Shown piece after piece: positions 118 through 64,000 of a stretch of 64,000 nt of DNA. The notes beneath the pieces were generated by a model. The model was not told the origin of the DNA, did not search any database, and worked only from the letters and a program-made list of their open reading frames with translations. Both the position numbers and the translations under genes were made by a program. Position 1 is the first letter of the stretch, and each line of letters begins with the position of its first letter. Source of the stretch: a virus (lineage: Duplodnaviria; Caudoviricetes); IMG/VR virus record IMGVR_UViG_3300021255_002694, one strand, 5' to 3'.

Positions 118-726
118 ATGTCAAATATATTAGAAATAGGATATATAGAGTATTCAGATCAAGCAAAAAGGGTTAATTGGAATCAACTGCTCCGTGCAAG
201 GGCAGATAATCCAAATCTCAGAATTTATGTTCAACCTTACAATGATACTGATTCTACTGGCGCACAAGATACATTTATTGCGACAAAGATCATGATTGTT
301 GACTACAATACAAATGATGTTTATTTTACTGTGTTTGCAGAAATATTGCAAACATCAGAATCAATGATTCCTGTTTCTGCATCTCCGGATGCAGACAGGA
401 TTATTGATATGATAAATTCATACGGATTTAATGTAAGATTATCTGAGCCTACTCCGATAACAGACAGAGTTCTAACAATCCTAAGAGGTCTATATGCTTC
501 TGGATATCTTTATGTATATAGAGACTATATTAACACAAGAACAACTAGAACAACATCTGTAATCTATGCATCAGATCAGATAAAATTAAGAAAAACAGGA
601 TTCAATATAACCAAAACTCCGGATTTTGTTGAAGATGATTGGGATTGGTGTAAACCAAATTATGCTTATCCAATAAAAGACTTGATTGAAAATGGAACTG
701 TGAATAATGGACAGCCTATTACTTGA
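118..726 (+). CDS. hypothetical phage protein
   Basis: 202-aa ORF with RBS; no recognised motif. Confidence 0.75.
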   Translation: MSNILEIGYIEYSDQAKRVNWNQLLRARADNPNLRIYVQPYNDTDSTGAQDTFIATKIMIVDYNTNDVYFTVFAEILQTSESMIPVSASPDADRIIDMINSYGFNVRLSEPTPITDRVLTILRGLYASGYLYVYRDYINTRTTRTTSVIYASDQIKLRKTGFNITKTPDFVEDDWDWCKPNYAYPIKDLIENGTVNNGQPIT

Positions 727-1087
727 TTCAAGTATTTCCGGAATAGAAAATGGTTATTATATATCTTGTTACTATGTAATTGATAATCACTTACGGTACA
801 TATCTTTATGTGACGCGAATTTATTTTATTTGCACTATGCTGATTCAGACTGTGTTGGAGAGAAGATAAAACAATCTTCAAATGAACACGAATTTGATGC
901 ATACGTTTATAATCAAAATAAGCCAATATTCAGTATGTGCAGTAACTATGAGAACATTGACAATAAAAATATTCGCATTGTTAGCATAAAGACAAGTACA
1001 GGTAATCCGATTACTAGAAAACCTAAAACACCAGAAAATGTAAACATATTAACAAGGTATTCAAATAATAACAAAAAATTATTTTGA
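707..1087 (+). CDS. hypothetical protein with C-terminal KKLF tail
   Basis: 126-aa ORF filling the gap between 118..726 and phoH; ends NNNKKLF*, the same tail as the MTases. Confidence 0.7.
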   Translation: MDSLLLDSSISGIENGYYISCYYVIDNHLRYISLCDANLFYLHYADSDCVGEKIKQSSNEHEFDAYVYNQNKPIFSMCSNYENIDNKNIRIVSIKTSTGNPITRKPKTPENVNILTRYSNNNKKLF

Positions 1088-1991: not shown

Positions 1992-4154
1992 TTGGAACAA
2001 AAATATTCAGAATTTTTTGATATTCTTCCGAAACATGCTCTTTTACCTATAATCAGACTTGTTCCATCAAAGTTTACTAAGATTACATCTGATCTACTTG
2101 CGTATGTGTTCATACAGCAAGGTGTCGTAAAAAAGATTGTTCTTGATAATCTAAAAGAATCAGCGAACAGGATAGTCAAACAACAATTAAATCCAGTTGG
2201 TAAATCTGATGATAGTTCAGATATTATGTCAATGGATGTTTCAGATGAATGTAAGATACTGCTTGATAGTTTTCTGTATTTTAAGTCACGCTATGAATCA
2301 ACAATAACATCCGATATACTTACGGCATACGTAACTTATATAATGATTTCAGATCAGAGAATAAGTTGTTCTCGCTTTTTCAAAGACTGTTTATATGTTA
2401 AAGAGTATACAAATGTGATAAACTCTTTATATAGTCAACTATCTGAATTTGTTGGAGTTACGAGATCGGATGTTCTTATTGACTACGGGGAGTATTTAAC
2501 TGATCCACTCATATATAAGCACTATGACTACTACGGCAGAGATAGTATTGTTGAGGAATGTATTGACGTTTTATGTAGGTACAGTAAGGCTAATCTTGCT
2601 CTTGTCGGAAATGCCGGAGTTGGAAAAACAAGTATAGTGTATGAAATTTGTAATGTCATTTCATCTGATGCATGTCCAGATCAACTGAAAGCATATAATG
2701 TATTTGCATTAGATGTTACAAAATTGACAAGTGGAACAACATTTAGGGGCGATCTTGAAAAGAGACTTGATACAGTAATATCTGAACTTAAAGATCATAA
2801 AAACATAATATTGTTTGTCGATGAGATGCAGTATATAGTAGGAAAAGACTCAGACTCTAAAACATTGCAAGGTGCATTGAAACCATATTTATCTGAAAGT
2901 TCAAAAGTAATAGGATGTACAACAGAGGAAGAATATAAATCTATTGAATCAGATCATGCATTTGAACGGAGATTTACAAAAGTAGTTGTTCCGGAAATGA
3001 CAGTAGATGAAACAATAGATGTACTTATGAATAAGTTAAATACTTATATAAAACACCACGATGCATATATAGACGATGAACTTGTAAAATACCTTGTAAT
3101 GAAGTGTGATCTGTGCATAAGAAATAGGTATTTTCCAGATAAGGCGTTTGATATACTTGATAAGGCTCTTGTGATGTGTTCGCATAGAGATAATAGAATT
3201 GTGACAAAAGATGACATTGATCTTACAATAAATCAGTTCTGCAATACGAGAAGCGCGAATGACATTGAGTATGTGAATAATGCAGAAAAAGAGATAAAAT
3301 CTTTATTGTTCGGTCAAGATCATATAATAAAAAGTGTGTGCAACTATCTAAGAAGATATGCTTTACACGTAAATGATCATGAAAAACCTATAGCAAATCT
3401 GTTATTTGTAGGTCCAACTGGAACAGGAAAAACGGAACTATGTATTCAGATCGCAAAGAAGTTTTTTACTGACGAAAGTTTTATACGGTATGATATGTCG
3501 GAGTTTATGGAACCTCATTCTGTTTCAAAGATAGTAGGTTCTCCGCCAGGATATGTTGGATATGATCGCGGCGGATCACTAACTGAAAAGGTAAAACATA
3601 ATCCATATTCGATAGTGTTGTTTGATGAAATTGAAAAGGCGCATAAAGATGTTGTCAATATCTTATTGCAAATTATGGATGATGGCAGACTGACAGATTC
3701 TTTTGGAACAACAGTAGATTTTAGAAATTGCATCATTGTAATGACTTCTAATATTGGATGTAAAGAGTACATGAATAAAAATCCACTTGGATTTTCTGAC
3801 AACGTAAAAACGGATAAATCAATAATCCGCAAATCTTTAATGGATTTTTTCGCACCGGAATTTCTAAATAGATTAGATGATATAATGTACTTTAATCCAA
3901 TAACAAGCGATATATTTGATAGCATATTCAATAAAAATGTAAGATGTTTTATTGATCGCTATAAAAACGAGGGAATAACACTTGATATTGATGAAAACAC
4001 ACTCAGTTCACTGAAAACTTTATGTTTTAATGAGAAGAATGGTGTCAGATATATTAAAAATAAGATCGCACAAAAATTAGAACCGTATATATTTGATTCA
4101 ATAAGTTCTGGCAGTAAGTTCATAAAACTTAATAATCTTGATTTTAAGGAGTAA
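1992..4154 (+). CDS. Clp/Hsp100 ATPase (ClpA/ClpB/ClpC family, two AAA+ modules, no long middle coiled coil)
   Basis: GNAGVGKT, GTTFRGDLEKRL, LFVDE, FERRF, RYFPDKAFD; second module GPTGTGKT, DMSEFMEPHSVSKIVGSPPGYVGY, FDEIEKAH, FAPEFLNRLD. Confidence 0.93.
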   Translation: MEQKYSEFFDILPKHALLPIIRLVPSKFTKITSDLLAYVFIQQGVVKKIVLDNLKESANRIVKQQLNPVGKSDDSSDIMSMDVSDECKILLDSFLYFKSRYESTITSDILTAYVTYIMISDQRISCSRFFKDCLYVKEYTNVINSLYSQLSEFVGVTRSDVLIDYGEYLTDPLIYKHYDYYGRDSIVEECIDVLCRYSKANLALVGNAGVGKTSIVYEICNVISSDACPDQLKAYNVFALDVTKLTSGTTFRGDLEKRLDTVISELKDHKNIILFVDEMQYIVGKDSDSKTLQGALKPYLSESSKVIGCTTEEEYKSIESDHAFERRFTKVVVPEMTVDETIDVLMNKLNTYIKHHDAYIDDELVKYLVMKCDLCIRNRYFPDKAFDILDKALVMCSHRDNRIVTKDDIDLTINQFCNTRSANDIEYVNNAEKEIKSLLFGQDHIIKSVCNYLRRYALHVNDHEKPIANLLFVGPTGTGKTELCIQIAKKFFTDESFIRYDMSEFMEPHSVSKIVGSPPGYVGYDRGGSLTEKVKHNPYSIVLFDEIEKAHKDVVNILLQIMDDGRLTDSFGTTVDFRNCIIVMTSNIGCKEYMNKNPLGFSDNVKTDKSIIRKSLMDFFAPEFLNRLDDIMYFNPITSDIFDSIFNKNVRCFIDRYKNEGITLDIDENTLSSLKTLCFNEKNGVRYIKNKIAQKLEPYIFDSISSGSKFIKLNNLDFKE

Positions 4155-7311: not shown

Positions 7312-7316
7312 TATAG

Positions 7317-7358
7317 AAATCACAATGTACTTGTAGTGTGCATTGTGATTTTTTTTTT
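7317..7358 (+). terminator. intrinsic terminator
   Basis: AAATCACAATGTAC / GTGCATTGTGATTT stem plus a long T-run. Confidence 0.85.
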
Positions 7359-7369
7359 ACTGTAAATAC

Positions 7370-7398
7370 TTGACAAATTGAGCGATTTGTGATATACT
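7370..7398 (+). promoter_or_regulatory. early sigmaA promoter of the lar-MTase operon
   Basis: TTGACA-17-TATACT with TGTG extension. Confidence 0.88.
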
Positions 7399-7436
7399 AT
7401 ATATGGATATTTATTTTGTATATGGTGGTGAAATAT

Positions 7437-7679
7437 ATGAGACTTGTTGCAAATTGCCCGTTCTGCGGTGGATATTCAAACCTTGTTCGGAAAAGTAAAA
7501 CGATCGTTCATGGTGAAACCAAACAAACAACATATGTGGAATGTAAGGTTTGTCATTGCAGAGGTCAGAGATTTCTGCTTGATGATTTCAAAACTTCAAC
7601 TGAAGCTAGGGATGCTGCCGTTGAATCTTGGAATAGACGTTTCGGTTCAACTATTTATTTAGGTGTTGATGACGTATGA
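7437..7679 (+). CDS. lar: Lar-family restriction alleviation protein
   Basis: CPFCGG ... YVECKVC ... AVESWNRR signature. Confidence 0.8.
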   Translation: MRLVANCPFCGGYSNLVRKSKTIVHGETKQTTYVECKVCHCRGQRFLLDDFKTSTEARDAAVESWNRRFGSTIYLGVDDV

Positions 7680-8461
7680 ATTACATGGGAAGTAAGGCAT
7701 CAATCTCTAATAGCATTGTACCTATTATACAGAAGTGCATTATGTTTAGCGGATATGATCATTATATTGAACCATTTGTAGGCGGAGCAAATATAATCGA
7801 ACATGTTAAATGTAATATAAGAGTTGGTGCTGATATAAACAGATATTTAATCTCTCTGCTTAGATATTCACAACAGCATGAAATTTCAGATTTTCCAGAA
7901 GATATAACATATGAAGAATACTGTTCCGTTCGTGATGCATTTAACATAAAATCTGAAAAATATGAAGATTGGTATGTCGGATGTGTTGGTTTTCTAGCGT
8001 CTTTTAACGGAAGATTCTTCGATGGCGGATTTGCAAAACCACATTATTCTGACGGTCAACATAGAGAACCATATAAAGAACATTTAAGAAATCTCATGAA
8101 ACAAAATCTATCCGGAATTGATTTTATATGTTGTGACTATAAATCATTTAGTAATATATCTAATCATGTTGTATATTGTGATCCGCCTTATGCGAATACA
8201 AAAGATTATAACGGGAACAGGGATTTTTATTCAGATGAATTTTGGGATTTTGCAAGAAAGTTGTCAAGTAGCAATATTGTATTGATTTCAGAGCAAATTG
8301 CCCCGAAAGATTTTATGGAAATATGGTCACAAGATGTAAAGAGACAGATCAACACTTCGGATGATAAATTCACAGTTTCAGAGAAATTATATGTACATGA
8401 GAAATCATTTGATGCCGTGAATGAGTACGTAAATAAGTTTAAGATTAAGAGGTTATTTTAA
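7676..8461 (+). CDS. Dam/D12-class N6-adenine DNA methyltransferase (ends KRLF)
   Basis: MNYMGSK, YIEPFVGGAN (motif I), VYCDPPY (motif IV). Confidence 0.9.
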   Translation: MNYMGSKASISNSIVPIIQKCIMFSGYDHYIEPFVGGANIIEHVKCNIRVGADINRYLISLLRYSQQHEISDFPEDITYEEYCSVRDAFNIKSEKYEDWYVGCVGFLASFNGRFFDGGFAKPHYSDGQHREPYKEHLRNLMKQNLSGIDFICCDYKSFSNISNHVVYCDPPYANTKDYNGNRDFYSDEFWDFARKLSSSNIVLISEQIAPKDFMEIWSQDVKRQINTSDDKFTVSEKLYVHEKSFDAVNEYVNKFKIKRLF

Positions 8462-9765
8462 TGAATATTGTATGTGAAACTAAATCAGGTAAAATAGTAC
8501 ACGGAGATAACTTAGATGTATTAAAAGATATTGAAGATTCATCTGTAGATTCATGTATTTCTGATTTCCCATATGCGATTGAATTTATGGGTAAGAATTG
8601 GGATTCTATGAAGTCGTGGCATGACGGAGATGGAAGTCACAGCGAATTCAAAGGAACAGGTTATTCCGGTAAACGCAGACCTAATTTTTATCTAAACAAC
8701 CGTAAGGATATGGAGAATTTCTATGATTGGTGCAAGTTAAGATCAGATGAACTTATGAGAGTTATGAAATCCGGAGCATATGTTGCTATATTTGGTTCAG
8801 TTAAAACTAACCATAGAATGAAGTGTGCATTTGAAGATTCTGGATTTATTATTGTTGAAGAGACAGATTGGATTTACTTATCTGGTATGCCGAAATCACA
8901 AGATATTGGTAAAATGTTTGATGTTTCTGGAAATCCCGATCTTGCAAAAGTATATAAAGATTGGAAAACAGCCGGACTAAAACCAGCACATGAAACAATA
9001 ACAATATTCCAAAAACCTCTTGATGGTACGTATATCCAAAATATTGAAAAATATGGTGTTGGAGCAATGAATATAGGTGCTTGCAGAGTACCGATATCTA
9101 AAGAAGATATTGATATGTTAAATGCAAAAGCATCTAAGAATCCCACAACAAATTATTCTGATAAAGATGATAAAATTTATGGTAAGTATGCTCTTGATAT
9201 GGCAGTTCCGGCAAATCCAGATGGTAGATTTCCACCTAATATCGTAATTGATGAAGAAATTTCAAAAGCCATTGATGCACAGACTGGAATTTCTAAATCT
9301 AGCGGAGGAAGTGGTGTGCTTAGTAGAGTTCATAGATGTAGAAATACATATGGTGCTTTTGATGAGGATACAAATTCTAATTATGTTAATGATTCTCTCG
9401 GCGGATATGGAGATGTTGGTGGTGGATCAAGACTATTTCCAATTTTCCAATACTGCCCGAAAGTAAGTCCATCAGAAAGACTGTTGAAAAATGGAGAAAG
9501 AAATCCGCACGTAACACTAAAACCAGTAGATTTGATTAAATGGCTAATAAAACTTATAACTCCTATAAATGGATTTACTATTGATATAACAGCCGGAAGT
9601 TGTACTCATGCCGTTGCCTGTGAAACACTAAATATTGAAAATGGATATGATCTAAAATATTTAGATATTGAACTTTGTAATGATGAAGAAAATCCATATT
9701 GTGATGTAGGTAAACAAAGAGTTGAAGATGTTGTTAATACTATAAGGAATAAGAAACTGTTTTGA
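8461..9765 (+). CDS. beta-class N6/N4 DNA methyltransferase with variant motifs (ends KKLF)
   Basis: HGDNLDVL, SDFPY, GMPKS, LKPAHE, GRFPPN, HVTLKP, DITAGSCT. Confidence 0.8.
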   Translation: MNIVCETKSGKIVHGDNLDVLKDIEDSSVDSCISDFPYAIEFMGKNWDSMKSWHDGDGSHSEFKGTGYSGKRRPNFYLNNRKDMENFYDWCKLRSDELMRVMKSGAYVAIFGSVKTNHRMKCAFEDSGFIIVEETDWIYLSGMPKSQDIGKMFDVSGNPDLAKVYKDWKTAGLKPAHETITIFQKPLDGTYIQNIEKYGVGAMNIGACRVPISKEDIDMLNAKASKNPTTNYSDKDDKIYGKYALDMAVPANPDGRFPPNIVIDEEISKAIDAQTGISKSSGGSGVLSRVHRCRNTYGAFDEDTNSNYVNDSLGGYGDVGGGSRLFPIFQYCPKVSPSERLLKNGERNPHVTLKPVDLIKWLIKLITPINGFTIDITAGSCTHAVACETLNIENGYDLKYLDIELCNDEENPYCDVGKQRVEDVVNTIRNKKLF

Positions 9766-9776
9766 GGTGAAGTATC

Positions 9777-10649
9777 TTGCTAGAACTCAATAAAATATAT
9801 TGCACAGATTGTGTAAGCGGTATGCGAAAACTTGATAATTGTTGTATTGACCTTATAGTAACATCTCCACCATATGACTCTTTAAGAACATACAATGGGT
9901 TTAATTTTGATGAATCCTATCAAATTCAAGTAATAAACCAAATATTCAGGGTATTAAAAGATGGCGGTGTTGCTGTTTGGGTTGTTGGTGATGGAACTGT
10001 TGATGGTAGCGAAACTGGAACATCGTTCAAGCAAGCGTTAAAATTTATGGACATTGGGTTTAAGTTACATGACACAATGATATATCAAAAACATAATCCA
10101 ACACCGAATACAGGAAACGGTATTAGGTATCAGCAGAGTTTTGAGTACATGTTTGTATTCTCAAAAGGAAAGCCGAAAACAGTTCACTTATTACAGGAGC
10201 CAAGGCGAAATGAATGCGGAGATAGAAGAACCGTTAGAATGATTCGTAGGCAGAGGAATGTTGACGGTGAATTTGAGGAAGAACGTAAGTATGAGATAAA
10301 ACAAGTTGTTCCAAGATCAAATATATGGAATTACAAGGTTGGACTATATAACACAACATGTGATAAAGTTGCATTTAAGCATCCGGCAATATTTCCAGAG
10401 CAACTTGCCATTGATCATATACTATCGTGGTCAGATGAAAATGATATTATTCTTGATCCATTCATGGGTAGTGGGACAGTAGCAAAAGCATGTATGGTAA
10501 CGAATAGAAACTACATTGGATTTGAAGTAAGTTCAGAATATTGTGATATAGCATCCGATAGATTAAAAAATTTTAGTGCAGAATCATATGGTATACATAT
10601 TGATGATAAATCAAACAATAGGTTTGATGGAATGACAAAGCTGTTCTGA
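9777..10649 (+). CDS. beta-class (SPPY) N4-C/N6-A DNA methyltransferase (ends TKLF)
   Basis: TSPPY, HPAIFP, LDPFMGSGT. Confidence 0.9.
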   Translation: MLELNKIYCTDCVSGMRKLDNCCIDLIVTSPPYDSLRTYNGFNFDESYQIQVINQIFRVLKDGGVAVWVVGDGTVDGSETGTSFKQALKFMDIGFKLHDTMIYQKHNPTPNTGNGIRYQQSFEYMFVFSKGKPKTVHLLQEPRRNECGDRRTVRMIRRQRNVDGEFEEERKYEIKQVVPRSNIWNYKVGLYNTTCDKVAFKHPAIFPEQLAIDHILSWSDENDIILDPFMGSGTVAKACMVTNRNYIGFEVSSEYCDIASDRLKNFSAESYGIHIDDKSNNRFDGMTKLF

Positions 10650-10695
10650 TATGTAATACTTTTGTGGAAAATATGTGAAAAAAGAGGTTGTTCTA

Positions 10696-11442
10696 ATGAA
10701 TATATTGATTGCGTGTGAAGAGTCGCAGAAAGTATGTTCTGAATTCAGAAAACTAGGACATGTAGCATATTCGTGTGATATTCAAGAACCATCGGGAGGA
10801 CATCCAGAGTGGCATATATTGGGAGATGCATTAGAAATTTTGAACACAACAACCGATGGAGTTGTATTTAATACAATGGACGGGAAATCACACCATATTC
10901 CGAAATGGGATTTGTTGATTGCGCATCCACCGTGTACATATCTCTCGAACGCAGGAGCTTGTCGGCTTTATCCACACAAAGGAGAGTTGAATCTGGAGCG
11001 GTATGAAAAGGGACTTAATGCAAAGGAATTCTTTATGAAATTCTACAATGCAGACATTGAACACATTGCGGTTGAGAATCCTATCCCATCAAAAGTGTTT
11101 GAACTGCCAAACTGTACGCAAATTATTCAGCCTTATGAGTACGGTCATCCGTATACAAAGAAAACGTGCTTATGGTTGAAGGGACTTCCGAAACTTAAAC
11201 CGACAGATATTGTGGAGCCAATAGGTCCGTGGGTATGCGGCAATGTACAGATTTGGAAAAAGCAAGCTGCAAAAGGTACAGTAATTGGCAAGGAAAAGGA
11301 TGCAAAACATAGATCAAAGACATTTGATGGGATTGCCAAAGCAATGGCTACTCAATGGTCGAATTTTTGTGAATTATCAAAAGATCAGCAGAAGCAAATT
11401 TTATGTAAAATATATAATAACAATTATAAAAGATTGTTCTGA
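10696..11442 (+). CDS. phage-type C5 cytosine DNA methyltransferase (ends KRLF)
   Basis: NILIACEESQ, SCDI, WDLLIAHPPCTYLS, IAVENP, RSKTFDGIAKAMATQW. Confidence 0.8.
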   Translation: MNILIACEESQKVCSEFRKLGHVAYSCDIQEPSGGHPEWHILGDALEILNTTTDGVVFNTMDGKSHHIPKWDLLIAHPPCTYLSNAGACRLYPHKGELNLERYEKGLNAKEFFMKFYNADIEHIAVENPIPSKVFELPNCTQIIQPYEYGHPYTKKTCLWLKGLPKLKPTDIVEPIGPWVCGNVQIWKKQAAKGTVIGKEKDAKHRSKTFDGIAKAMATQWSNFCELSKDQQKQILCKIYNNNYKRLF

Positions 11443-11452
11443 GGTGTAAAGA

Positions 11453-12211
11453 ATGTCAAATCTATACAATATTGATTGCGTTGATTTCATGTCTGATGCA
11501 TTAGATAGGCATGTGAAATATGATTACTGTATTACATCTCCACCATATAATATGAATTTAAGGGTTCGTGATGGTAAGTATATTTCAAGATCACCTATGC
11601 AAACAAACTATAATGAGTTTTCAAAGAAGTATAATAATTATGGTGATGATTTGACAATGGAAGAATACTTCAACTTCTTGGATTTGGTTATAGAGAAATT
11701 GTTAAAACTGTGTAAAATAACATTTTTCAATATACAGATGATAACAGGTAATAAGATTGCACTTATGCAAATACTCGGAAAATATGCAGATAATATAAAA
11801 GATATTATTATATGGGATAAATGCACCGCGCAACCAGCAATGCATGAAAATATACTGAATAGTCAGTTTGAGTTTATTATCGTATTTGATTCAGAGAAAC
11901 CTTATAACAGAGCATTTGATTACTCAAATTTTGATCGCGGTACAGAAACAAATGTGTGGAGAATACAAAGACAGACGAATAAATATAACAAAGCATCTTT
12001 TCCGGAAGAACTTGTTTTAAGGATAATTAAAGATTTTACCAAAGATGGCGAAACTGTATTTGATCCATTTATGGGTTCAGGAACAACCGGAATTGTTTGT
12101 TCAAAGATGAATAGAAATTTTGTCGGATGCGAACTTGATACAAATATGTTTGAAATTGCAAAGAATAGAATAGAGAATCAAGAAAAAATTAGTAAGTCGA
12201 GGTTATTCTAA
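11453..12211 (+). CDS. beta-class (SPPY) DNA methyltransferase (ends SRLF)
   Basis: ITSPPYN, FDPFMGSGTTG. Confidence 0.9.
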   Translation: MSNLYNIDCVDFMSDALDRHVKYDYCITSPPYNMNLRVRDGKYISRSPMQTNYNEFSKKYNNYGDDLTMEEYFNFLDLVIEKLLKLCKITFFNIQMITGNKIALMQILGKYADNIKDIIIWDKCTAQPAMHENILNSQFEFIIVFDSEKPYNRAFDYSNFDRGTETNVWRIQRQTNKYNKASFPEELVLRIIKDFTKDGETVFDPFMGSGTTGIVCSKMNRNFVGCELDTNMFEIAKNRIENQEKISKSRLF

Positions 12212-12212
12212 A

Positions 12213-13028
12213 ATGAGTGTTCAGCTATACAATGATGATTGTATAAACGTACTTAGAAACATGGATGGCTGTACAGTAGACTTGACAGTTACATCACCAC
12301 CGTATGATAATTTAAGAGAATATAACGGAAACATAAGTAACTGGAATTTTGATAAGTTTAAGTTGGTTGCCAATGAACTTTATAGAGTTACGCGAAATGG
12401 CGGAGTTGTTGTCTGGATAATCTCTGATGCAACTATAGATGGAACAGAAACAGGAACTTCATTTAATCATGCTCTGTATTTTAAGAGTATTGGTTTTAAT
12501 CTACATGATACAATGATCTGGCACAAACCAAATCCAATGCCGAGAGATACAAGAATACCTAGATACTGGCAGTCGTTTGAGTACATGTTTATATTGTCAA
12601 AAGGCAAACCTGATCATTTTACATTTCTAATGGAAGATTCAAAACATGCCGGAAAATCATCTGTATTTCATCAAAGAAATCCAGACGGTAGCATGAGAGA
12701 TGATAGGAAAATAGTTACATCTAATAATGTGTGCAAGGAAAAGAAGCCACTTGGAAATGTTTGGTCTATAAACACAATAGCGTCAAATAGCGAGAAAACA
12801 GGGCATCCTGCACAATTTCCGGTACAACTAGCGCAAGATCATGTTGTATCTTGGTCTTATGAAAATGATGTTGTTTTGGATTGTTTTATGGGTTCTGGAA
12901 CAACAGGTGTTGCTTGTGTAAAAACAAAAAGAAATTTCATTGGAATTGAACTAGATGAATCATATTTTAATATAGCAAAGGATAGAATATGTCAAGAGGA
13001 AAAACAGCTAAAGTCAAAATTATTTTGA
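12213..13028 (+). CDS. beta-class (SPPY) DNA methyltransferase, paralog of 9777..10649 (ends SKLF)
   Basis: TSPPY, ETGTSF, HPAQFP, LDCFMGSGTTG. Confidence 0.9.
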   Translation: MSVQLYNDDCINVLRNMDGCTVDLTVTSPPYDNLREYNGNISNWNFDKFKLVANELYRVTRNGGVVVWIISDATIDGTETGTSFNHALYFKSIGFNLHDTMIWHKPNPMPRDTRIPRYWQSFEYMFILSKGKPDHFTFLMEDSKHAGKSSVFHQRNPDGSMRDDRKIVTSNNVCKEKKPLGNVWSINTIASNSEKTGHPAQFPVQLAQDHVVSWSYENDVVLDCFMGSGTTGVACVKTKRNFIGIELDESYFNIAKDRICQEEKQLKSKLF

Positions 13029-13042
13029 GGTGAATTATATAA

Positions 13043-14644
13043 ATGTTTAAAATTATAAATGGAAATATGCTAGAAGAATTAGATAAAATGGAAGAAAATA
13101 GCGTTGGTAGTATTGTAACTGATCCACCATATGAAATCAATTTTATGAATAATGGTTGGGATAATGCCGGAGTTGCATTTTCTGCTGAGACATGGAAGAA
13201 GTGTCTAAGAGTTCTAAAGCCTGGTGGTTATCTTTTATCATTTGCCGCAGCAAGAACTCAGCATAGAATCGCATGTGCTATTGAAGATGCTGGATTTGAG
13301 ATAAGAGATACTATTATGTGGCTTTATGGTAGTGGGTTTCCTAAATCAATGGATATATCTAAACAGCTAGATAAGCGTGGAGCAAATAATACAAGCACAA
13401 TATGCGATATTATTCATAACAGACGAGTTGAATTAGGTTTAACTCTAAAAGACATTGACGAGTATGTTGGAACAAATGGTATGGCATTGCATTGGGAAAA
13501 CGGTAGAAGGGGTATAACTCCTGAAAATTTTAATAAGCTAATCAAATTATTGAAAATAGATGCTGATGAAGCATTTAGTGCTTGCAGAGATATAGTAGGA
13601 CAAGTAGAAAAAACTGAGAGTTACCGATACAAAAACAACAATGTGTATCAAACAAACGGTAATGAGGACAAGGTGTTGTTAGATATAACAGTGCCAAAGA
13701 CAGACTTAGCAAAACATTGGGAAGGATATGGAACATCTTTAAAGCCTGCGTATGAACCTATTATAGTAGCAAGAAAACCTCTGTGCGGTACAGTTGCAGA
13801 TAATGTTATGACATACGGTGTTGGTGGAATTAACATTGATGAATGTCGTATCCCGTTTGAAACAACTCCGAATCCGGCAACTAATCCTCTATATCGTTTG
13901 CAGAATGGATACAAGACAACAGCAAATGCGAACACAGGAGATGGTGTTGTGTCTTTTGGAACAAGCCATAATGAAACAAACCCATCTGGAAGATTTCCTG
14001 CAAATGTAATTCTTACCTATGATGATTCTGATTTTGATGAGGTTTGCGGTGGTTTTCCAGACACAAAAAGCGGAAAGGCTGTTCGTCATAATTCTGGTGG
14101 ATGTACTTTCGGCGGAGATAAGAAGAAACCGCCAATGGAAGATTTAGGCTACGATGACGGTGGAGGATCTGCCGCAAGATATTTTTATTGTGCAAAGGCA
14201 TCTAAGCGTGATCGTGATGAGGGGTTAGATGATCTACCTACAAAGCAAGCTGTAGGTGGTGGCGGTGGAATTGGTGATTATGTAGATGATGTAAACAGTT
14301 GTTCTGGAAAATTTGGAAGTGAAAAAGCACCACATAAAAACTTTCATCCAACCGTAAAACCAACGTCTCTTGTTCAGTATTTAGTGCGTCTTGTAACTCC
14401 AAAAGGTGAAACTGTGCTTGATCCTTTTATGGGTAGCGGATCAACTGGAAAAGCTGTTGCGTATGAGAACAATGATCGTAATGCAGATTATAGCTTTATC
14501 GGAATAGAATTGAATCCTGAATACTGTGATATTGCACAAAGACGAATTGAGTTTGCTGAAAAAGATAAGACACATCTAACAGAACCTAAACAAAAGAAAT
14601 CTAAACCTGATGAAACAGTAAAGAAACAGAGCAAGTTATTTTGA
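13043..14644 (+). CDS. beta-class (DPPY) DNA methyltransferase with inserted XRE-type HTH (ends SKLF)
   Basis: VTDPPY, GFPKS, RRVELGLTLKDIDEYVG..LHWENG (HTH), HPTVKP, LDPFMGSGSTG. Confidence 0.9.
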   Translation: MFKIINGNMLEELDKMEENSVGSIVTDPPYEINFMNNGWDNAGVAFSAETWKKCLRVLKPGGYLLSFAAARTQHRIACAIEDAGFEIRDTIMWLYGSGFPKSMDISKQLDKRGANNTSTICDIIHNRRVELGLTLKDIDEYVGTNGMALHWENGRRGITPENFNKLIKLLKIDADEAFSACRDIVGQVEKTESYRYKNNNVYQTNGNEDKVLLDITVPKTDLAKHWEGYGTSLKPAYEPIIVARKPLCGTVADNVMTYGVGGINIDECRIPFETTPNPATNPLYRLQNGYKTTANANTGDGVVSFGTSHNETNPSGRFPANVILTYDDSDFDEVCGGFPDTKSGKAVRHNSGGCTFGGDKKKPPMEDLGYDDGGGSAARYFYCAKASKRDRDEGLDDLPTKQAVGGGGGIGDYVDDVNSCSGKFGSEKAPHKNFHPTVKPTSLVQYLVRLVTPKGETVLDPFMGSGSTGKAVAYENNDRNADYSFIGIELNPEYCDIAQRRIEFAEKDKTHLTEPKQKKSKPDETVKKQSKLF

Positions 14645-14655
14645 GGTGATCTGAA

Positions 14656-15549
14656 ATGGACTACATAAGAAGTCCCATGAACTATACCGGAGGTAAGTAT
14701 AAACTGTTAAATACAATTATTCCAGCTTTTCCAGAAAAGATTGATAATTTTGTTGATCTTTTCTGCGGCGGATTAAACGTAGGGATAAATGTAAATGCTA
14801 ATACAATATATGCAAATGATCAAATAAATTATATAATTGATCTATATAAGTATTTTAAACAAACAGATACTAAAGAACTTATTGATCTGATATGTAATAG
14901 AATAAAACAGTTTAACTTGTCACCGGATAATAAAGATGCATATTTGCAGTTAAGAGATCACTACAATAAAGATAAAGATATACTTGATCTTTTTATCTTA
15001 ACATGTTTCTCATATAATCATCAAATAAGGTTTAACAGTAAGCATGAGTTTAATACTTCATTTGGAATGAGAAGCTATAATGACCAGATTGAACAAAATC
15101 TGATTGAATTCTGCAATGCGCTGAGATCGAAAAATTTTGTATTTTCAACAAATGATTTTAGAGACTTTGATTTTTCAGTTTTGCATTCAGGCGATCTTGT
15201 TTACTGTGATCCGCCGTATTCAATATCAACAGCCGCATATAATGATGGTAAACGTGGGTTTAACGGATGGTCTGAAAAAGATGACATTGATTTGTTTGAT
15301 ATTCTTGATTCACTATCTGCAAAAGGAATATTGTTTGCATTATCAGATGTAACAAAGCATAAAGGAATGACAAACGAATCTCTTGTGAAATGGGCGGAAA
15401 AATATAATACGGTTTATATTTATACAGACTACTCAGGAGCAAGTTGTAATCTGAAAGATAGATATTGTGATACACAAGAAGTTCTAATTACAAACTATGC
15501 TGTTTCTGTTTTTAATGATGATACTGTTAGATCAAAGAAATTGTTTTGA
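14656..15549 (+). CDS. Dam/D12-class N6-adenine DNA methyltransferase (ends KKLF)
   Basis: SPMNYTGGKYKL, FVDLFCGG, VYCDPPY, EVLITNY. Confidence 0.92.
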   Translation: MDYIRSPMNYTGGKYKLLNTIIPAFPEKIDNFVDLFCGGLNVGINVNANTIYANDQINYIIDLYKYFKQTDTKELIDLICNRIKQFNLSPDNKDAYLQLRDHYNKDKDILDLFILTCFSYNHQIRFNSKHEFNTSFGMRSYNDQIEQNLIEFCNALRSKNFVFSTNDFRDFDFSVLHSGDLVYCDPPYSISTAAYNDGKRGFNGWSEKDDIDLFDILDSLSAKGILFALSDVTKHKGMTNESLVKWAEKYNTVYIYTDYSGASCNLKDRYCDTQEVLITNYAVSVFNDDTVRSKKLF

Positions 15550-15561
15550 GGTGGTAAACAA

Positions 15562-16179
15562 ATGTTGTTTGAATTAAACAATTTATATAATATAGATTGC
15601 ATGGTTGCCTTAAAAGATTTTCCAGATAACTATTTTGATATTGCTATTGTTGATCCGCCTTATGGACTTCCAGAAGAATCTACACATCACAGAGGATTCT
15701 TAAAAGATCGGATATTAAACGCAGATGATATACATGAGTGGGATGTTGCTCCAACAAAAGAATATTTTGATGAATTATTTAGAGTTAGTAAGAATCAGAT
15801 AATTTGGGGCGGTCAGCATTTTGATCTTCCGCCTACAAGATGTGTTGTATGTTGGGATAAATGTCAGCCTTGGGAAAACTTCTCTCAGGTTGAAATTGCA
15901 TGGACTTCATACAATAAACCTGAGAAGTTGTTTCGATTTGATAACAGAACAACGAAGAAAGTTCATCCGACACAGAAGCCTGTTGAATTATATGCATATC
16001 TTCTAAACACATTTGCGAAAAAAGGAATGAAGATACTTGATACACATGTTGGAAGTGGATCAAGTATCATTGCATGTAAGCAATTTGGGTGTGATTTTAT
16101 TGGATTTGAGATCAATAAAAAATACTTCAATATAGCTATGGATAGAATATCTAAATCTATAGAGAAGAAATTGTTTTGA
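15562..16179 (+). CDS. small beta-class (DPPY) DNA methyltransferase (ends KKLF)
   Basis: IVDPPYG, VSKNQIIWGG, HPTQKPVELY, LDTHVGSGS. Confidence 0.9.
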   Translation: MLFELNNLYNIDCMVALKDFPDNYFDIAIVDPPYGLPEESTHHRGFLKDRILNADDIHEWDVAPTKEYFDELFRVSKNQIIWGGQHFDLPPTRCVVCWDKCQPWENFSQVEIAWTSYNKPEKLFRFDNRTTKKVHPTQKPVELYAYLLNTFAKKGMKILDTHVGSGSSIIACKQFGCDFIGFEINKKYFNIAMDRISKSIEKKLF

Positions 16180-16189
16180 GGTGTACGGA

Positions 16190-17080
16190 ATGAATAAATG
16201 TCTTGTAAAATGGTCAGGATCAAAAAGAATACAAGCAAGCAGAATAGTTGATCTATTTCCAGATGAAATTGATACATATTACGAACCGTTTATGGGTGGA
16301 GCTTCAGTTCTAATTGAATTACTATTAAGATCAGATAAAGCAGTAAATAATTACATTGCATCTGATTTGAATGCTCATGTTGTTAGTCTGTTCAACCTTA
16401 TTAAATATAATCCGAGCAAATTGATTGAATCATATGAGGAAAATTGGAAGTATATGAACAGTGAACAAGATGGTAAAAATGACAGATACCTTGAAATACG
16501 TGATAGATTCAACGAAAACTTTTCACCAGAAGATTTCTACTTTTTAACAAAAACATGCTATACAGGTCTAATTAGATTTAACAGAAAAGGTCAATTTAAT
16601 GTTGGTTATCATTTCGGGCGAAGCGGCGAAAAACCGGATAGTGTTTCTGAATCAGTGCGTTTTTATTCTGATCTATTAAATAGGAAAAATGTTATTTTTA
16701 AGTGTAAAAGTTACAGTGAGATAAATCCGAATGTTGATGATTTTGTTTATTTCGATCCACCATACGATAATACAAAACAAACAATGTATCTAGGTGGATT
16801 TGAAAAAGATAAGTTCTTTGATTTCTGTAGATCACTTAGCTGTAAGTATGCAATTTCATATGATGGTGGAGTAGTTGGAGAATCAGCAAGTGCATCAATA
16901 CCGAGTGACATATTTAAAGAAGCTGTTGCTATTGATGCAATGAGAAATATGCGTCAAACTTTTAAGAGTGATAAATATAAAACAGAAATAACAAGCAAAA
17001 CTCTACAAAGATTTGAAATGCTTTATCTTAACTATGAACCACATAATACAGCAAAGCTAGTCTCACATAAATTATTTTAA
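16190..17080 (+). CDS. Dam/D12-class N6-adenine DNA methyltransferase (ends HKLF)
   Basis: KWSGSKR, YYEPFMGGASV, RFNRKGQFNV, YFDPPY; GAGGTG RBS overlaps the previous stop. Confidence 0.9.
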   Translation: MNKCLVKWSGSKRIQASRIVDLFPDEIDTYYEPFMGGASVLIELLLRSDKAVNNYIASDLNAHVVSLFNLIKYNPSKLIESYEENWKYMNSEQDGKNDRYLEIRDRFNENFSPEDFYFLTKTCYTGLIRFNRKGQFNVGYHFGRSGEKPDSVSESVRFYSDLLNRKNVIFKCKSYSEINPNVDDFVYFDPPYDNTKQTMYLGGFEKDKFFDFCRSLSCKYAISYDGGVVGESASASIPSDIFKEAVAIDAMRNMRQTFKSDKYKTEITSKTLQRFEMLYLNYEPHNTAKLVSHKLF

Positions 17081-17657: not shown

Positions 17658-18089
17658 ATGGTTAGAAGATTAAGAGAAAGTCGTGGAGACTTTGAAGATT
17701 ATAAGTTGCTTGTAAACGGAATGGGTTGGGCTACAGTTTATGTTGATGATTATGAGCAAGGCAAAGGTAAATTTGTACATGATTGGGATTTCGATGTAAG
17801 AGGTACATATGATTCCATAGAAAGTCTTATTGCAGAAGTATCATCTACATGTGGATGTGGCTCTACAGATGTTAAAGACTGGGGTTTAATGGTCGATAAT
17901 GGAACAATAACTACTAACTGTTTAGTTGATGAAGATGATCTTGAAGCTGATCAAAGACAAATAGAGAAGTGGAAACGTGGCGAATATACTCTTTATATTT
18001 GTGATATAATGGTTCCAATTCAAATTGTTACCGATCCTAGAGATGTAACAGAAGAAGATGCAAATTTGATTGGCATTCAAGTTTGGTAA
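17658..18089 (+). CDS. acidic protein with MVRRLRES leader, candidate internal head protein
   Basis: LRES motif; acidic body. Confidence 0.75.
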   Translation: MVRRLRESRGDFEDYKLLVNGMGWATVYVDDYEQGKGKFVHDWDFDVRGTYDSIESLIAEVSSTCGCGSTDVKDWGLMVDNGTITTNCLVDEDDLEADQRQIEKWKRGEYTLYICDIMVPIQIVTDPRDVTEEDANLIGIQVW

Positions 18090-49650: not shown

Positions 49651-51717
49651 ATGTTCGATCTTTATGAGAAGAAAGAAACAAAGTCTAAAGCAACTAATGG
49701 TAATTTGCATAAAGCAAAAGTAAATAAAAACGATGAATTCTATACACAGCTTACAGATATTGAAAAAGAACTTATGCACTATAAAGAACATTTCAAGGAT
49801 AAGATCGTATACTGTAACTGTGATGATCCGGAGTGGAGTAATTTCTGGAAGTATTTTCACCTTAATTTTGCACACCTCGGCTTGAAGAAATTGATCGCAA
49901 CATTTTATCATATCGGAGCATCCGTATATAAAATGGAATATACTGGTGGAGATGATAATAATATTTCTGCCGGAGTTAAGATTCCTCTTACTGGAAATGG
50001 TGATTTCAGATCGGAAGAATGTGTTGAAACTTTGAAAGAGTCTGATATTGTGGTTACTAATCCACCGTTTAGCTGTTACTCTAGCGATACTGAGGTCATG
50101 ACAAATAACGGCTGGAAACTGATTAAGGATGTTGACATCTCAACTGATTTAATTATGTCTCTGAATCCAGATACACATGAAATTGAATTTGTAAAAGCAG
50201 TTGACTTTATAACAAGCCCTGTAAATGGAGAACTTTATCACTATCAGTCAAGAAACATGGATTTCTGTGTTACTGGAAATCATAATATGTATGCTTATTA
50301 TAAAGATTGTCATGATGTTCCTAGAAGCATTCCTCTTGTAGAAGCTAGTTCCGTCAAGAAATCTTACATGCTTCCCATTACTGGCTTTTCATGGAGTGGT
50401 AACGATCAGGAATATTTTGTATTGCCAGAAACAAAGCAACTTGAACAATATACAAGAAAAGAAATCACTGTTCCGGAAAAGATGATCCCGATGGAAGATT
50501 GGCTTGAATTTTTCGGATTTTATCTTGCAGATGGATGTTATAGAGATCATATAAATTCACTCGGAAAAAGAGACTATACAATTTCAATTAAGCAAAATGT
50601 AAGCAATGAAGATTACGTGATTGATCTTATCCGGAGAATTGGATTTGATGCAAGAATCAGTGCAGGAAGTTCTGATTCCAATAAGAATTATAGTATCTAC
50701 TCAAAACAGCTTTGGGAATACTTGATGCAGTTTGGAAGAAGCCAGGATAAATATATTCCAAGAGAATTTCTCGATCTTGATGTAAAGTATCTCAAAGCAC
50801 TGTATAAAGGGTATACAAATGGCGATAGTTCTTTGTGTGCAGACGGTCATATTCACTTTTCAACTGTATCTGAAAAATTGATTTCAAACATTCAGGAACT
50901 TATCTTGAAAATTTTTGGACGCATTACACAAGTTAGAAAGTCTGTGCGTAAACACTCCTATGATGATAATTATGGAACATGTTACAGTATTAACGTAAAA
51001 CTAGATAAAAATAGAGATAACTTTAGTAAATATGTAACACCAAAAATGATTCCATATAATGACAATGTGTACTGTCTTACACTTGAAAAGAATCATATTA
51101 TGCTTGTTAGACATAATGGTATTATCGGGTGGTGTGGAAACTGTTTTAGAGATTATGTTGCACAGTTGATGAAGTATGAGAAGAAGTTTCTGATTATTGG
51201 AAATGTGAGTGCAATCACATATAAAGAGTTCTTCCCTTTAATTAAAAATGGAATGGTGTGGATTGGTCAATCAATTCACTCTGGAGATAGAAAATTTTAT
51301 GTTCCAGACTCGTATCCATTAAATGCATCTGGTTGTGGAATTGATGAAAATGGAAAAAGATACATACGAGTTAAGGGTGTTCGTTGGTACACTAATATGG
51401 ATTATGCTAAAAGGCACGAAAAACTTGTATTGTATAAAAAGTATGATTCGCAACATTACAGTAAATATGATAATTATGATGCAATCAACGTAGATAAGGT
51501 TATAGATATTCCTGTTGACTATGACGGAGTTATGGGTGTTCCTATCACTTTTTTGGATAAATACTGTCCTGAACAATTTGACATAGTGGATATAAACCCA
51601 CACTTTTTTAGCATTATTGAGCAGGGGCTACCTAAACCGAAGCAGCTAACTTTGCATAGTGTAGGAAAAAAAGATCCTTATGCCCGTATTCTTATACGCA
51701 AGAAAGTAGGTGCTTGA
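49651..51717 (+). CDS. EcoRI-family adenine-specific DNA methyltransferase, intein-containing
   Basis: NLHKAK..KNDEFYT, VYCNCDDP, GNGDFRS.EC, IVVTNPPFS|intein|CFRDY..QL, KFLIIGN, YDNYDAINV, MGVPITFLDKY. Confidence 0.9.
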   Translation: MFDLYEKKETKSKATNGNLHKAKVNKNDEFYTQLTDIEKELMHYKEHFKDKIVYCNCDDPEWSNFWKYFHLNFAHLGLKKLIATFYHIGASVYKMEYTGGDDNNISAGVKIPLTGNGDFRSEECVETLKESDIVVTNPPFSCYSSDTEVMTNNGWKLIKDVDISTDLIMSLNPDTHEIEFVKAVDFITSPVNGELYHYQSRNMDFCVTGNHNMYAYYKDCHDVPRSIPLVEASSVKKSYMLPITGFSWSGNDQEYFVLPETKQLEQYTRKEITVPEKMIPMEDWLEFFGFYLADGCYRDHINSLGKRDYTISIKQNVSNEDYVIDLIRRIGFDARISAGSSDSNKNYSIYSKQLWEYLMQFGRSQDKYIPREFLDLDVKYLKALYKGYTNGDSSLCADGHIHFSTVSEKLISNIQELILKIFGRITQVRKSVRKHSYDDNYGTCYSINVKLDKNRDNFSKYVTPKMIPYNDNVYCLTLEKNHIMLVRHNGIIGWCGNCFRDYVAQLMKYEKKFLIIGNVSAITYKEFFPLIKNGMVWIGQSIHSGDRKFYVPDSYPLNASGCGIDENGKRYIRVKGVRWYTNMDYAKRHEKLVLYKKYDSQHYSKYDNYDAINVDKVIDIPVDYDGVMGVPITFLDKYCPEQFDIVDINPHFFSIIEQGLPKPKQLTLHSVGKKDPYARILIRKKVGA
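50074..51141 (+). mobile_element. intein with LAGLIDADG homing endonuclease (356 aa)
   Basis: Block A CYSSDTEVMTNNGWK; block B VTGNH; FFGFYLADG and LYKGYTNGD blocks; C-terminal VYCLT..NH.MLVRHNG..GWCGN followed by Cys+1. Confidence 0.9.
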
Positions 51718-56392: not shown

Positions 56393-57148
56393 CTTTTTCC
56401 CACGCACATGGGGGTTATCCTATGCAGGTTTCCATGCACCTGATTTTCTTCCACTTTTTCCCACGCACATGGGGGTTATCCTCAAGCAAAAGGTCCTGAT
56501 TACTTTGAAGATATCTTTTTCCCACGCACATGGGGGTTATCCTGCCATCTTACTGGTTTCATAAAATCAAATCCTCTTTTTCCCACGCACATGGGGGTTA
56601 TCCCATCTTTCAATTCCTCCTCTGGAATTAGTTTGACTTTTTCCCACTCACACGGGGGTTATCTCAAAATCAAGATATTCCTGCTGCTGCAATTCGGATT
56701 TTTCCAACTCATACGGGTGGTTATCCTTTTCCAGTGATCGGATCAAAACCATCCTTTAACTTTTTCCTACTTTCGTGGAGTTATCCCTATTACAGGACTT
56801 GCACAATCAATACCTGAACCTTTTTCCACTCGCGTGGTGGTTATCCGCATTCGAGTCTTTCAGTCTGTGTTCCAGTACAGCTTTTCCCACCTGCATGGGG
56901 GTTATCCTTACTAGAAGAATTCCTTTCATAATATGTCTCATTTTCCCACTCGAATTGGGTTATCCAGATATTCCACAGGTATTGGTCCAAATCCAAGTCT
57001 TTTTCTCCACACACATGGGGTTATCCTTGATTTGTCAGAGTTCCTGGTGTACAAGCACACTTTTTCCCATGCAAGTTGGGGGTTATCCTACTCTGCTGTT
57101 TTGATAATTGCATCCGTTGTCCTTTTCCCGTGCAAACGGGGGTTATCC
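56393..57148 (+). CRISPR. type I-E CRISPR array 1: 13 repeats, 12 spacers of about 33 nt
   Basis: Repeat CTTTTTCCCACGCACATGGGGGTTATCC; copies 1-4 identical (56393, 56454, 56515, 56576), later copies divergent; about 61-bp period. Confidence 0.95.
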
Positions 57149-62283: not shown

Positions 62284-64000
62284 ATGAAAATATCGTTGAA
62301 CAATTTGCTTTTATCAGAACTCCGTGCATTTCCTGTAACCATGATTCCAGATAATGACGTTACAGATTCAACTCTAACAGCCGCGATTACTGCAAATGAA
62401 GAATTACTTAATCTAGGCTATACTTTATCAGCAGAAGATGTTGTTAATCTTGCAAAGTGTGGTGAACTGTATTCATTTGTAGAGATGTTCAAAGATGCTC
62501 TCTCGGATGTAAAAGCAAAACCAATGTATCCAAATTTCCCGAATCAAGTTATGGATATGGATGAAGCAACATTCAGATTTCATCAGATGATGCATTATTT
62601 TTCAACATATGGTGCAGAACTGTTTTTCGGTCTAAATGTATCTAAAGGATGGCTACCGAATGTAGAAGATACTCCTAAGATCAATGATGATAATACTTTG
62701 CTAAAAGCAAAGGTAATTACTCTTATTGATTCATATGACATTCCAGAATACGTTTATTCAAGAATTATGTCTAAATGCGAGAGATTGACAGATAAGGATC
62801 AGATGCTCCTTGACTATGTTCTTCCGAACATTGATGCAAGCACTATAAAGAGTGTTCAAATTCCGTTTAAGGAAAATATCATGCCTGTATTTTACAGTAT
62901 TGTCAATTCAACTGCAATTTCGCAAGAAGATAAACTTTGTTTTCTTAACTGTATTTGCAAGCATACCGGAGATGTTTTCAAGTGCATTGATTACACTCTT
63001 ACAAGATGCAAGTATCATTTCAAGACTTCTCAAAAAAGACTTTTCACAAAGTTGCTTGAAACATACAGTAACAGTGACTTTGAGGAAAATATAATTATCT
63101 CAGACAAGCGATCAAACAGAACAGAACTCTTGCTTAGATATATTGACTTTAACACATATTCACGTATTCCTGTATTCAAAACTATTGTCAATGAACTTCG
63201 ATCTGGTGAACTGCACTCTTGGATGTCTAAGGTCGAAGCAAAGTTGAAAACAAGAGATGTTGATGCTCTTAAGATGCTATCGAAAAGACCTGGCATCATG
63301 CTTAGAATGTTGACAAGACTTTTAAGACTCGGTTACAATCCTACAGATATTCTTGTATATCTGTATCCACATGCACCAGAACTTAGAACGCAGACACTTG
63401 TATCTATTCTAAACGCATTCAATGCTAAATTGGATGATCTTGAAAATAGTGATCAAAGTGAACTTAGTAGAGCAACAAGATCAGAGGTACAAAATGTGAT
63501 TACAATTTGTGCTGGATTACTTAGAGATAATCTTCACTCCAAAGATTCTCCGTTCAAAGGCAAAAGAGTTTATATTGATCACGGAGAGTACAATTTTGCA
63601 CGATCTATCATTGAAACAAACGGCAAATCTGATGAGGGCGGATATGTAAGATCAGGACTTTCATATAATATTCCAGATAATGTCAGTAGACTTAGATTCT
63701 TTGTTTACTGGAATCACAAGTATCGTGCAGATGTTGATTTGCACTCAAGACTTGTAGACTTCTGTGGCTGCACACAGGATATTGGATGGAATGCTAGTTT
63801 TAAAGAACCTGTTGCTGTATTTAGTGGAGACATTACACATTCAGATGCCGCAGAATATATTGACATTGATCTCGATGCAGCTAGAAATAACAATATCGAG
63901 TATGCAACAACATCAATTAAACTATATTCATCTGAGGATATAACAAACGGTCTTGGTGATCTTGATGAGTGTTATGTTGGATGCATGGCTGTTTCATCGC
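62284..64000 (+). CDS. large protein with C-terminal TerD-like domain (partial, runs off the window)
   Basis: GGAGGT RBS; KPMYPNFPNQVM..FHQMMHYFSTYG, KRPGIMLR.L.RLLR, RFFVYWN...DVDLHS, FSGDITHSDAAEYIDIDL; no stop seen before 64000. Confidence 0.75.
   Translation, partial: MKISLNNLLLSELRAFPVTMIPDNDVTDSTLTAAITANEELLNLGYTLSAEDVVNLAKCGELYSFVEMFKDALSDVKAKPMYPNFPNQVMDMDEATFRFHQMMHYFSTYGAELFFGLNVSKGWLPNVEDTPKINDDNTLLKAKVITLIDSYDIPEYVYSRIMSKCERLTDKDQMLLDYVLPNIDASTIKSVQIPFKENIMPVFYSIVNSTAISQEDKLCFLNCICKHTGDVFKCIDYTLTRCKYHFKTSQKRLFTKLLETYSNSDFEENIIISDKRSNRTELLLRYIDFNTYSRIPVFKTIVNELRSGELHSWMSKVEAKLKTRDVDALKMLSKRPGIMLRMLTRLLRLGYNPTDILVYLYPHAPELRTQTLVSILNAFNAKLDDLENSDQSELSRATRSEVQNVITICAGLLRDNLHSKDSPFKGKRVYIDHGEYNFARSIIETNGKSDEGGYVRSGLSYNIPDNVSRLRFFVYWNHKYRADVDLHSRLVDFCGCTQDIGWNASFKEPVAVFSGDITHSDAAEYIDIDLDAARNNNIEYATTSIKLYSSEDITNGLGDLDECYVGCMAVSS

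Follow-up and report, generated by a model that had tools for sequence, protein, structure and literature searches.

In a 64,000-nucleotide stretch of a tailed-phage genome (IMG/VR record IMGVR_UViG_3300021255_002694, Caudoviricetes; hereafter the window), ten tightly packed DNA methyltransferase (MTase) genes, consecutive on the + strand from position 7676 to position 17080, all encode the same C-terminal tripeptide, [K/R]-L-F. It is nearly certain that this tail is real, specific to MTases and selected as a peptide. With moderate confidence, we propose that it is most likely a sliding-clamp docking peptide, which would couple a multi-specificity anti-restriction methylation set to newly made phage DNA; both the binding and the effect on methylation are inferred. 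The ten endings, described in an earlier note on this DNA, were read again at all ten coordinates and confirmed. In array order, the tailed MTases are listed below, followed by the only other tailed protein and by an MTase without the tail that serves as a contrast case.

7676..8461, + strand: MTase 1, D12 class (PF02086, E-value 7e-18), ending ...KIKRLF
8461..9765, + strand: MTase 2, N6_N4 class (PF01555, E-value 4e-18), ending ...RNKKLF
9777..10649, + strand: MTase 3, N6_N4 class with SPPY (PF01555, E-value 9e-44), ending ...GMTKLF
10675..11442, + strand: MTase 4, phrog_757 'DNA methyltransferase' (E-value 7e-57), ending ...NYKRLF
11453..12211, + strand: MTase 5, N6_N4 class with SPPY (PF01555, E-value 4e-36), ending ...SKSRLF
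12213..13028, + strand: MTase 6, N6_N4 class with SPPY (PF01555, E-value 2e-48), ending ...LKSKLF
13043..14644, + strand: MTase 7, N6_N4 class plus HTH_3 (PF01555, E-value 2e-31; PF01381, E-value 1e-6), with a basic tail of about 30 residues ending ...KQSKLF
14656..15549, + strand: MTase 8, D12 class (PF02086, E-value 2e-34), with a tail (residues 282-297) ending ...RSKKLF
15562..16179, + strand: MTase 9, N6_N4 class (PF01555, E-value 3e-17), ending ...IEKKLF
16181..17080, + strand: MTase 10, D12 class (PF02086, E-value 3e-36), ending ...VSHKLF
707..1087, + strand: 126-residue protein of no assigned family, ending ...NNNKKLF
49651..51717, + strand: EcoRI-methylase-like MTase without the tail, ending ...RKKVGA and adjoining an HNH nuclease gene

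The frequency of the tail was assessed over 91.6 kb, that is the window joined to upstream loci, which hold 144 open reading frames (ORFs; 11 MTases and 133 others). The [K/R]LF ending is present on 10 of the 11 MTases versus 1 of the 133 other ORFs (Fisher p = 1.6e-13), and the number of such termini expected from amino-acid composition is 0.06 among the 144 ORFs, values on which a chance origin of the shared tails was rejected. The only MTase exception is the EcoRI-methylase-like enzyme and the only non-MTase with the tail is ORF 707-1087, both in agreement with the earlier note. Pfam, PHROG and Atlas gave no lead for the product of ORF 707-1087, whose orthologues, down to 71% identity, keep their last 13 residues unchanged. 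An LF end with neither K nor R before it also occurs on two more ORFs, at 56775-57104 (...YPTLLF) and at 63030-63299 (...VKSLF); the latter lies on the minus strand of a genome with its genes on the + strand, and may not be a gene.

To follow the tail at the nucleotide level, 21 tails from the window and from one relative were aligned at their stop codons. Leu is encoded by TTA, TTG, CTG or CTA, Phe by TTT or TTC, and Lys/Arg by AAA, AAG, AGA or AGG, so that variation is confined to third codon positions, to the first nucleotide of the Leu codons and to the second nucleotide of the K/R codons. Just after the stop, the information content falls to 0.1-0.8 bits. Since the codons vary synonymously or between K and R only, and since the DNA after the stop is unconserved, selection acts on the peptide; the codon variation described earlier thus stands, and a DNA repeat is rejected. 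The same alignment bears on the idea that the peptide is the by-product of a joint in the DNA, either a stop codon plus ribosome-binding site (RBS; ..TTYTGAGGTG) or a recombination joint between cassettes. TGA is indeed followed by GGTG at six of the ten junctions in the window, but 'TGAGGTG' is simply the RBS of the next gene, and the sequence after the stop is different in relatives. Moreover, tailed MTases outside the arrays precede unrelated sequence with no downstream RBS, and the linker DNA diverges among orthologues while LF stays. A DNA-level joint is therefore highly improbable, and its cassette form was rejected on the synonymous codon variation, the unconserved DNA after the stop and the tailed MTases found outside the array.

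Nine of the ten array ORFs pass the Pfam gathering threshold for a DNA methyltransferase family (PF02086 D12 or PF01555 N6_N4), and at least three families are represented, with three D12 enzymes, six N6_N4 enzymes and one member of PHROG 757. The description of the array as ten unrelated MTases holds at the level of these families and fails for two pairs of paralogues, MTases 3 and 6 (phmmer E-value 1e-75) and MTases 2 and 7 (phmmer E-value 1e-43). Between the alpha-class and beta-class enzymes, the tails are attached to different structural ends. In MTase 7, the HTH_3 domain (residues 125-176) is inserted between the two halves of the N6_N4 domain, where it may act in regulation or provide additional DNA binding. 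Regarding MTase 4, its assignment to the C5 class could not be maintained, as it matched neither PF00145 nor any other Pfam, NCBIfam or PDB entry, including solved C5 MTases, and hit phrog_757 only. Its phage homologues in GenBank, which carry an MTase annotation, align to residues 8-230 only, which indicates that the last 25 residues are an add-on.

The organization of the tail was best seen in an alignment of 15 MTase 8 orthologues (59-93% identity). The catalytic domain is conserved up to the EVLITNY motif and is followed by a linker of 12-16 residues, variable in sequence and in length, and then by the invariant L296 and F297, with K or R at position -3. This bears out the view that the tag follows the catalytic domain on a variable linker. 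In the AlphaFold model of MTase 8, the last strand covers residues 273-279, and residues 287-297 have a predicted local distance difference test (pLDDT) value below 50. The GenBank homologues of MTases 4 and 6 likewise align up to a point before the tail. These features are typical of a short linear docking motif carried by a disordered, variable linker, and a terminal motif in a disordered segment is also what beta-clamp-binding clients have.

The nature of the partner is suggested by more distant homologues, which were collected as the 120 best database matches of MTase 8 and of MTase 6. For MTase 8, the 14 closest full-length homologues end in [KR]LF, while 89 of the 120, with identities of about 60-65%, have endings of the Q[LM]x[LM]x[LF] type (EQMTLML, EQLTLTL, QQLTLF, CQLSLTF) that fit the published hexapeptide and pentapeptide motifs for beta-clamp binding. 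For MTase 6, 13 of the 120 end in LF, including QAQLSLF, QAQLTLF and RQLKLF, the last of these encoded on a small phage contig that also bears an integrase. Endings of this kind were absent from 150 unrelated control proteins. In the closest homologues from outside jumbo phages, this place is thus taken by clamp motifs of the QLxLF or QxxLxL form, an outcome that had been named beforehand as support for a clamp. One EQMTLML-type homologue of MTase 8 (P0144), indexed in 312 blocks of the collection, is the middle one of three tandem MTases in a bacterial mobile island (L010:6958-9883) and the only one of the three with this ending; its neighbors encode GmrSD, a radical-SAM protein, a serine recombinase and a LexA/Y-family polymerase module. 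In a catalytic-domain tree, the Q-type sequences group in one clade (support 0.96) with the [KR]LF sequences outside it, which indicates that the tail type changed across one split. When a very distant outgroup is included (branch length 5.7), the [KR]LF sequences do not make up a monophyletic group, and the tree does not give the direction of the switch.

About 19 further tailed MTases were found in two related phages (L001/L003 and L013), including two PF00145 C5 enzymes and genes outside the array. The first relative is a 173.5-kb contig with an array syntenic with that of the window; ten MTases of the contig end in xLF (KRLF, KKLF, SKLF, KSLF, RKLF, SKLF, NKLF, KKLF, QRLF and HKLF), and where the orthologue of the EcoRI-like MTase also lacks the tail. 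In the second relative, the two genuine C5 MTases end in RRKLF and NRRLF. None of the neighboring non-MTase genes in the loci of these relatives carries the tail. Three irregular cases were also noted. In the 173.5-kb contig, the D12 orthologue of MTase 8 (L001:13063-13860) ends in ...YRLFRCKL, which looks like a disrupted or frameshifted tail. In L013 (10878-11584 and 11594-14302), an N6_N4 MTase is broken into two ORFs, the last piece of which still ends in NKLF, and an intein-bearing C5 MTase has no tail.

The window is identical to part of a 323,500-bp sheep-rumen metagenome scaffold (European Nucleotide Archive ERZ28612978, scaffold_7; 0 mismatches over 10.7 kb), with scaffold position 135,160 corresponding to window position 1. 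The GC content is about 33%, nearly all genes lie on the + strand, and the gene contents indicate a jumbo phage. By walking along the scaffold with exact-protein look-ups, about 101 of the 323.5 kb were read, and this sequence holds a sliding clamp with its loader.

L009:1709-2800, 25.9 kb before the window on the same scaffold: DnaN-type clamp of 363 residues (phrog_947 'processivity factor', E-value 1e-28)
4.5-7.3 kb before the window: DnaX-, HolB- and HolA-like clamp-loader genes

The clamp gene adjoins a family-A polymerase gene split by an intein and an intron. The clamp has 871 relatives in the library, and the model built with 72 of them reached a pLDDT of 96.5. Compared with bacterial beta clamps, the model gave template-modeling scores (TM-scores) of 0.80-0.86, and it is of the three-domain DnaN type; its matches include E. 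coli clamps crystallized with bound peptides and with the dipeptide Ac-Leu-Phe (4k3l). A cognate DnaN-type clamp, which clamp-binding clients need, is thus available in the phage itself, together with its loader. The analogy drawn earlier with the gp45-binding tails of T4 and RB69 is loose only, the phage clamp being a bacterial-type DnaN dimer. A tail of the T4 type goes with a gp45/PCNA-like trimer and is shared with the polymerase; here the clamp is of the DnaN type and the polymerase, PolA, has an acidic C-terminus (...DEDEEENY).

The polymerase gene lies 26-30 kb before the window (L009:1-1690 and L015:6508-11095) and is split by an intein and by an insert bearing a GIY-YIG domain. Its last exon encodes a strongly acidic end (...DMDEDEDEEENY), reminiscent of the acidic tails at the C-termini of T7 replication proteins.

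When the clamp dimer was co-folded with MTase 8 residues 266-297, the two partners being entered as alignments, the score was 0.64 versus 0.08 for the best of three controls. The mark used for this comparison is reached by 58 of 80 solved complexes and by 2 of 110 mismatched pairs. Contact agreement between runs was at least 48%, with a pLDDT of at least 39 for the partner. Only tail residues 287-297 contact the clamp, at its residues 171-176, 236-243, 270-277, 316-319, 340-341 and 352-359, and the lowest expected error was found for L296 and F297. From E. coli beta, we take this contact surface to be the canonical peptide pocket between domains II and III. Acidic residues are located around the pocket (D172, D274, D318 and D357); the profile alignment to solved clamps stops short of the C-terminal strand, and no match of charge with the basic tails is claimed. 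The tail thus looks like a clamp ligand and the prediction, which does not show binding, supports it.

Several observations weigh against docking on the clamp. First, the canonical QL[SD]LF begins with Gln and Leu, a pair that none of the ten tails has at positions -5 and -4: the tails read x-[K/S/T/H]-[K/R]-L-F, share only the terminal LF with the consensus and fit neither QLxLF nor QLxLxL, and the single Gln, in MTase 7 (KKQSKLF), is one place nearer the end than in the consensus. Secondly, no [KR]LF end, QLxLF or [KR][KR]LF occurs in the replication and repair proteins of the 101 kb read, namely PolA, a DnaB-like helicase, a helicase loader, a Toprim primase, RecA-like and UvrD-like proteins, a weak Cas4-family match (E-value 0.02) and the three clamp-loader subunits, and the phage clamp consequently has no internal reference client. 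Thirdly, the favorable co-fold may be a recall of the many solved clamp-peptide complexes. Fourthly, in all three relatives a ClpA/ClpC-like ATPase gene keeps its synteny with the array. Finally, the sequence read covers about one third of the genome. The proposal of a clamp or replisome address tag was accordingly narrowed: the phage clamp exists and the tail is placed in its pocket by the co-fold suggested for it, but the predicted enrichment of [KR]LF on polymerase, primase, helicase and repair enzymes was not found in this sequence, so that [KR]LF is a tag of MTases and not a general replisome tag.

The gene syntenic with the array is the following.

1992..4154, + strand: ClpA/ClpC-like double AAA+ ATPase (AAA and AAA_2 domains), candidate for a rival partner

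With this partner, the tail would be a C-terminal degron or adaptor signal for the phage ATPase and ClpP, limiting the MTases to an early window or controlling their level. The gene lies 3.5 kb upstream of the array, and the protein is collinear in one piece with residues 189-717 of ClpA, without an M domain and with a unique N-terminal region of 180 residues that has no database match. It harbors an LGF at 598-601, which, judging from ClpA, we take to correspond in place to the ClpP-docking loop. The tail, with basic residues ahead of a hydrophobic C-terminus, also resembles the MuA-type signal for ClpX. However, the three relatives are close kin and do not count as independent observations of this gene order, the 101 kb read showed no ClpP gene, and a degron leaves unexplained the canonical clamp motifs found at the same position on homologues from unrelated elements. 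We consider this role quite unlikely.

A tail addressing the MTases to another shared partner or place, such as a phage-specific hub protein, the replication compartment or the virion, is unlikely as well. It would agree with a tag confined to MTases and one 126-residue protein and lacking on replisome proteins, but the analysis yielded no candidate partner, the packaging of ten MTases would be without precedent, and both the homologues with canonical motifs and the pocket-specific co-fold point to the clamp.

Docking on the sliding clamp could operate as follows. The [K/R]-L-F-COOH peptide would have been added to MTases of several structural classes captured by a jumbo-phage lineage. The terminal Leu-Phe would insert into the hydrophobic pocket that a beta-type clamp has between its domains II and III, and the preceding basic residues would lie along its C-terminal strand. 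The partner would primarily be the phage DnaN, loaded by the DnaX/HolB/HolA-like loader, and the host clamp may bind too. Clamps left on freshly replicated DNA would concentrate the whole MTase set on nascent, unmethylated phage DNA, and many host restriction specificities could thus be covered before cleavage.

A bolder and rather doubtful extension is that of an orthogonal code, in which the non-canonical basic-LF tail would be read by the divergent DnaN of the phage and reserved for DNA-modification enzymes, excluding the polymerase. Any captured MTase might then become replication-coupled through about 15 added residues. As MTases of temperate phages and of bacterial islands bear canonical clamp motifs, clamp-tethered methylation might, within this same extension, be a general and unrecognized strategy of mobile elements.

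The nearest known systems share part of these features. The bacterial beta-clamp motifs, reportedly defined by Dalrymple and colleagues in 2001 (listed in PMC9690074) as a QL[S/D]LF pentapeptide and a QLxLxL hexapeptide (in Pol II, III, IV and V, MutS, MutL and Hda), resemble the phage tail as short C-terminal peptides on a disordered linker, with a Leu-Phe end and a predicted place in the pocket between domains II and III, and homologous MTases carry the canonical form at the same position. They differ in that the phage tails lack the Gln and the first Leu and have Lys or Arg before LF, that the phage clients are DNA methyltransferases, which were not found on published client lists, and that the phage's own polymerase has no motif. 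The degrons of ClpXP and ClpAP (ssrA tag, MuA C-terminus) are also short C-terminal signals with terminal hydrophobic residues, preceded by basic residues in MuA, and a Clp-type ATPase gene is near the phage array; the homologues of the phage enzymes point to the clamp instead, and in the 101 kb read the ATPase with its LGF loop was seen and ClpP was not.

In eukaryotes, a PIP box tethers the maintenance methyltransferase DNMT1 to the clamp PCNA (PMC9690074). In both systems a DNA methyltransferase is hooked to a sliding clamp so that new DNA becomes methylated, as predicted on the phage side; the clamp family, the motif and the enzyme family differ, as do epigenetic maintenance and anti-restriction in the phage, where at least ten enzymes share the hook. 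Among phages, T4 gp33 and gp55 use the gp45 clamp as a platform (PMC9690074), and MuC of phage Mu binds the host beta clamp (bioRxiv 10.1101/2025.01.04.631326). These are likewise non-polymerase phage proteins whose clamp-binding peptides couple a function to replicated DNA, but they are transcription factors, the T4 clamp is a PCNA-like trimer, and MuC uses the host clamp through a canonical motif. The present phage differs from these systems by its DnaN-type clamp, its non-canonical basic motif and the sharing of the tail by at least ten enzymes while the polymerase lacks it. Full-text literature searches retrieved no description of a clamp-binding motif on a DNA methyltransferase from bacteria or phages.

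The synthesis of phage DNA is faster than the protection that a diffusing orphan methyltransferase might give, which raises the question of how phages keep pace. If docking on the clamp is true, a portable clamp hook would be a simple physical answer and a prokaryotic parallel to DNMT1 and PCNA. It would also explain how one phage fields at least ten specificities, suggesting a broad or shifting host range among rumen bacteria, and methyltransferases would join the client list of the bacterial sliding clamp. The canonical motifs on bacterial-island MTases suggest that the principle reaches beyond this phage, and the tail could serve as a tool for replication-coupled methylation.

Upstream of MTase 1, three features precede the array.

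7315..7353, + strand: terminator-like hairpin, a 16-pair stem followed by a T run, closing the upstream unit
7370..7398, + strand: sigma-70-type promoter-like site, TTGACA-17-TATACT with TG (11 of 12 matches, a consensus match only), ahead of lar and the array
7389..7679, + strand: Lar-family restriction-alleviation gene, first of the unit (PF14354, E-value 2e-10), for which the public gene call (L005) starts at 7437

After the promoter-like site, no terminator-like site was detected on the + strand up to the end of the scan at 17700, and the lar-headed MTase array appears to be one early anti-restriction operon.

Regarding the sampling of this phage, the phage collection contained no DNA near-identical to the window, and neither two protein queries nor an exact 41-mer brought up relatives in viral_contigs. 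A 3.1-kb stretch without called genes (L008:667-3824) lies about 14-17 kb before the window. Just upstream of the clamp loader, a 110-residue protein to which no function is assigned (L005:2039-2371) is indexed in 109 blocks of the public collection, which indicates that either the phage lineage or this gene is common in sequenced samples.

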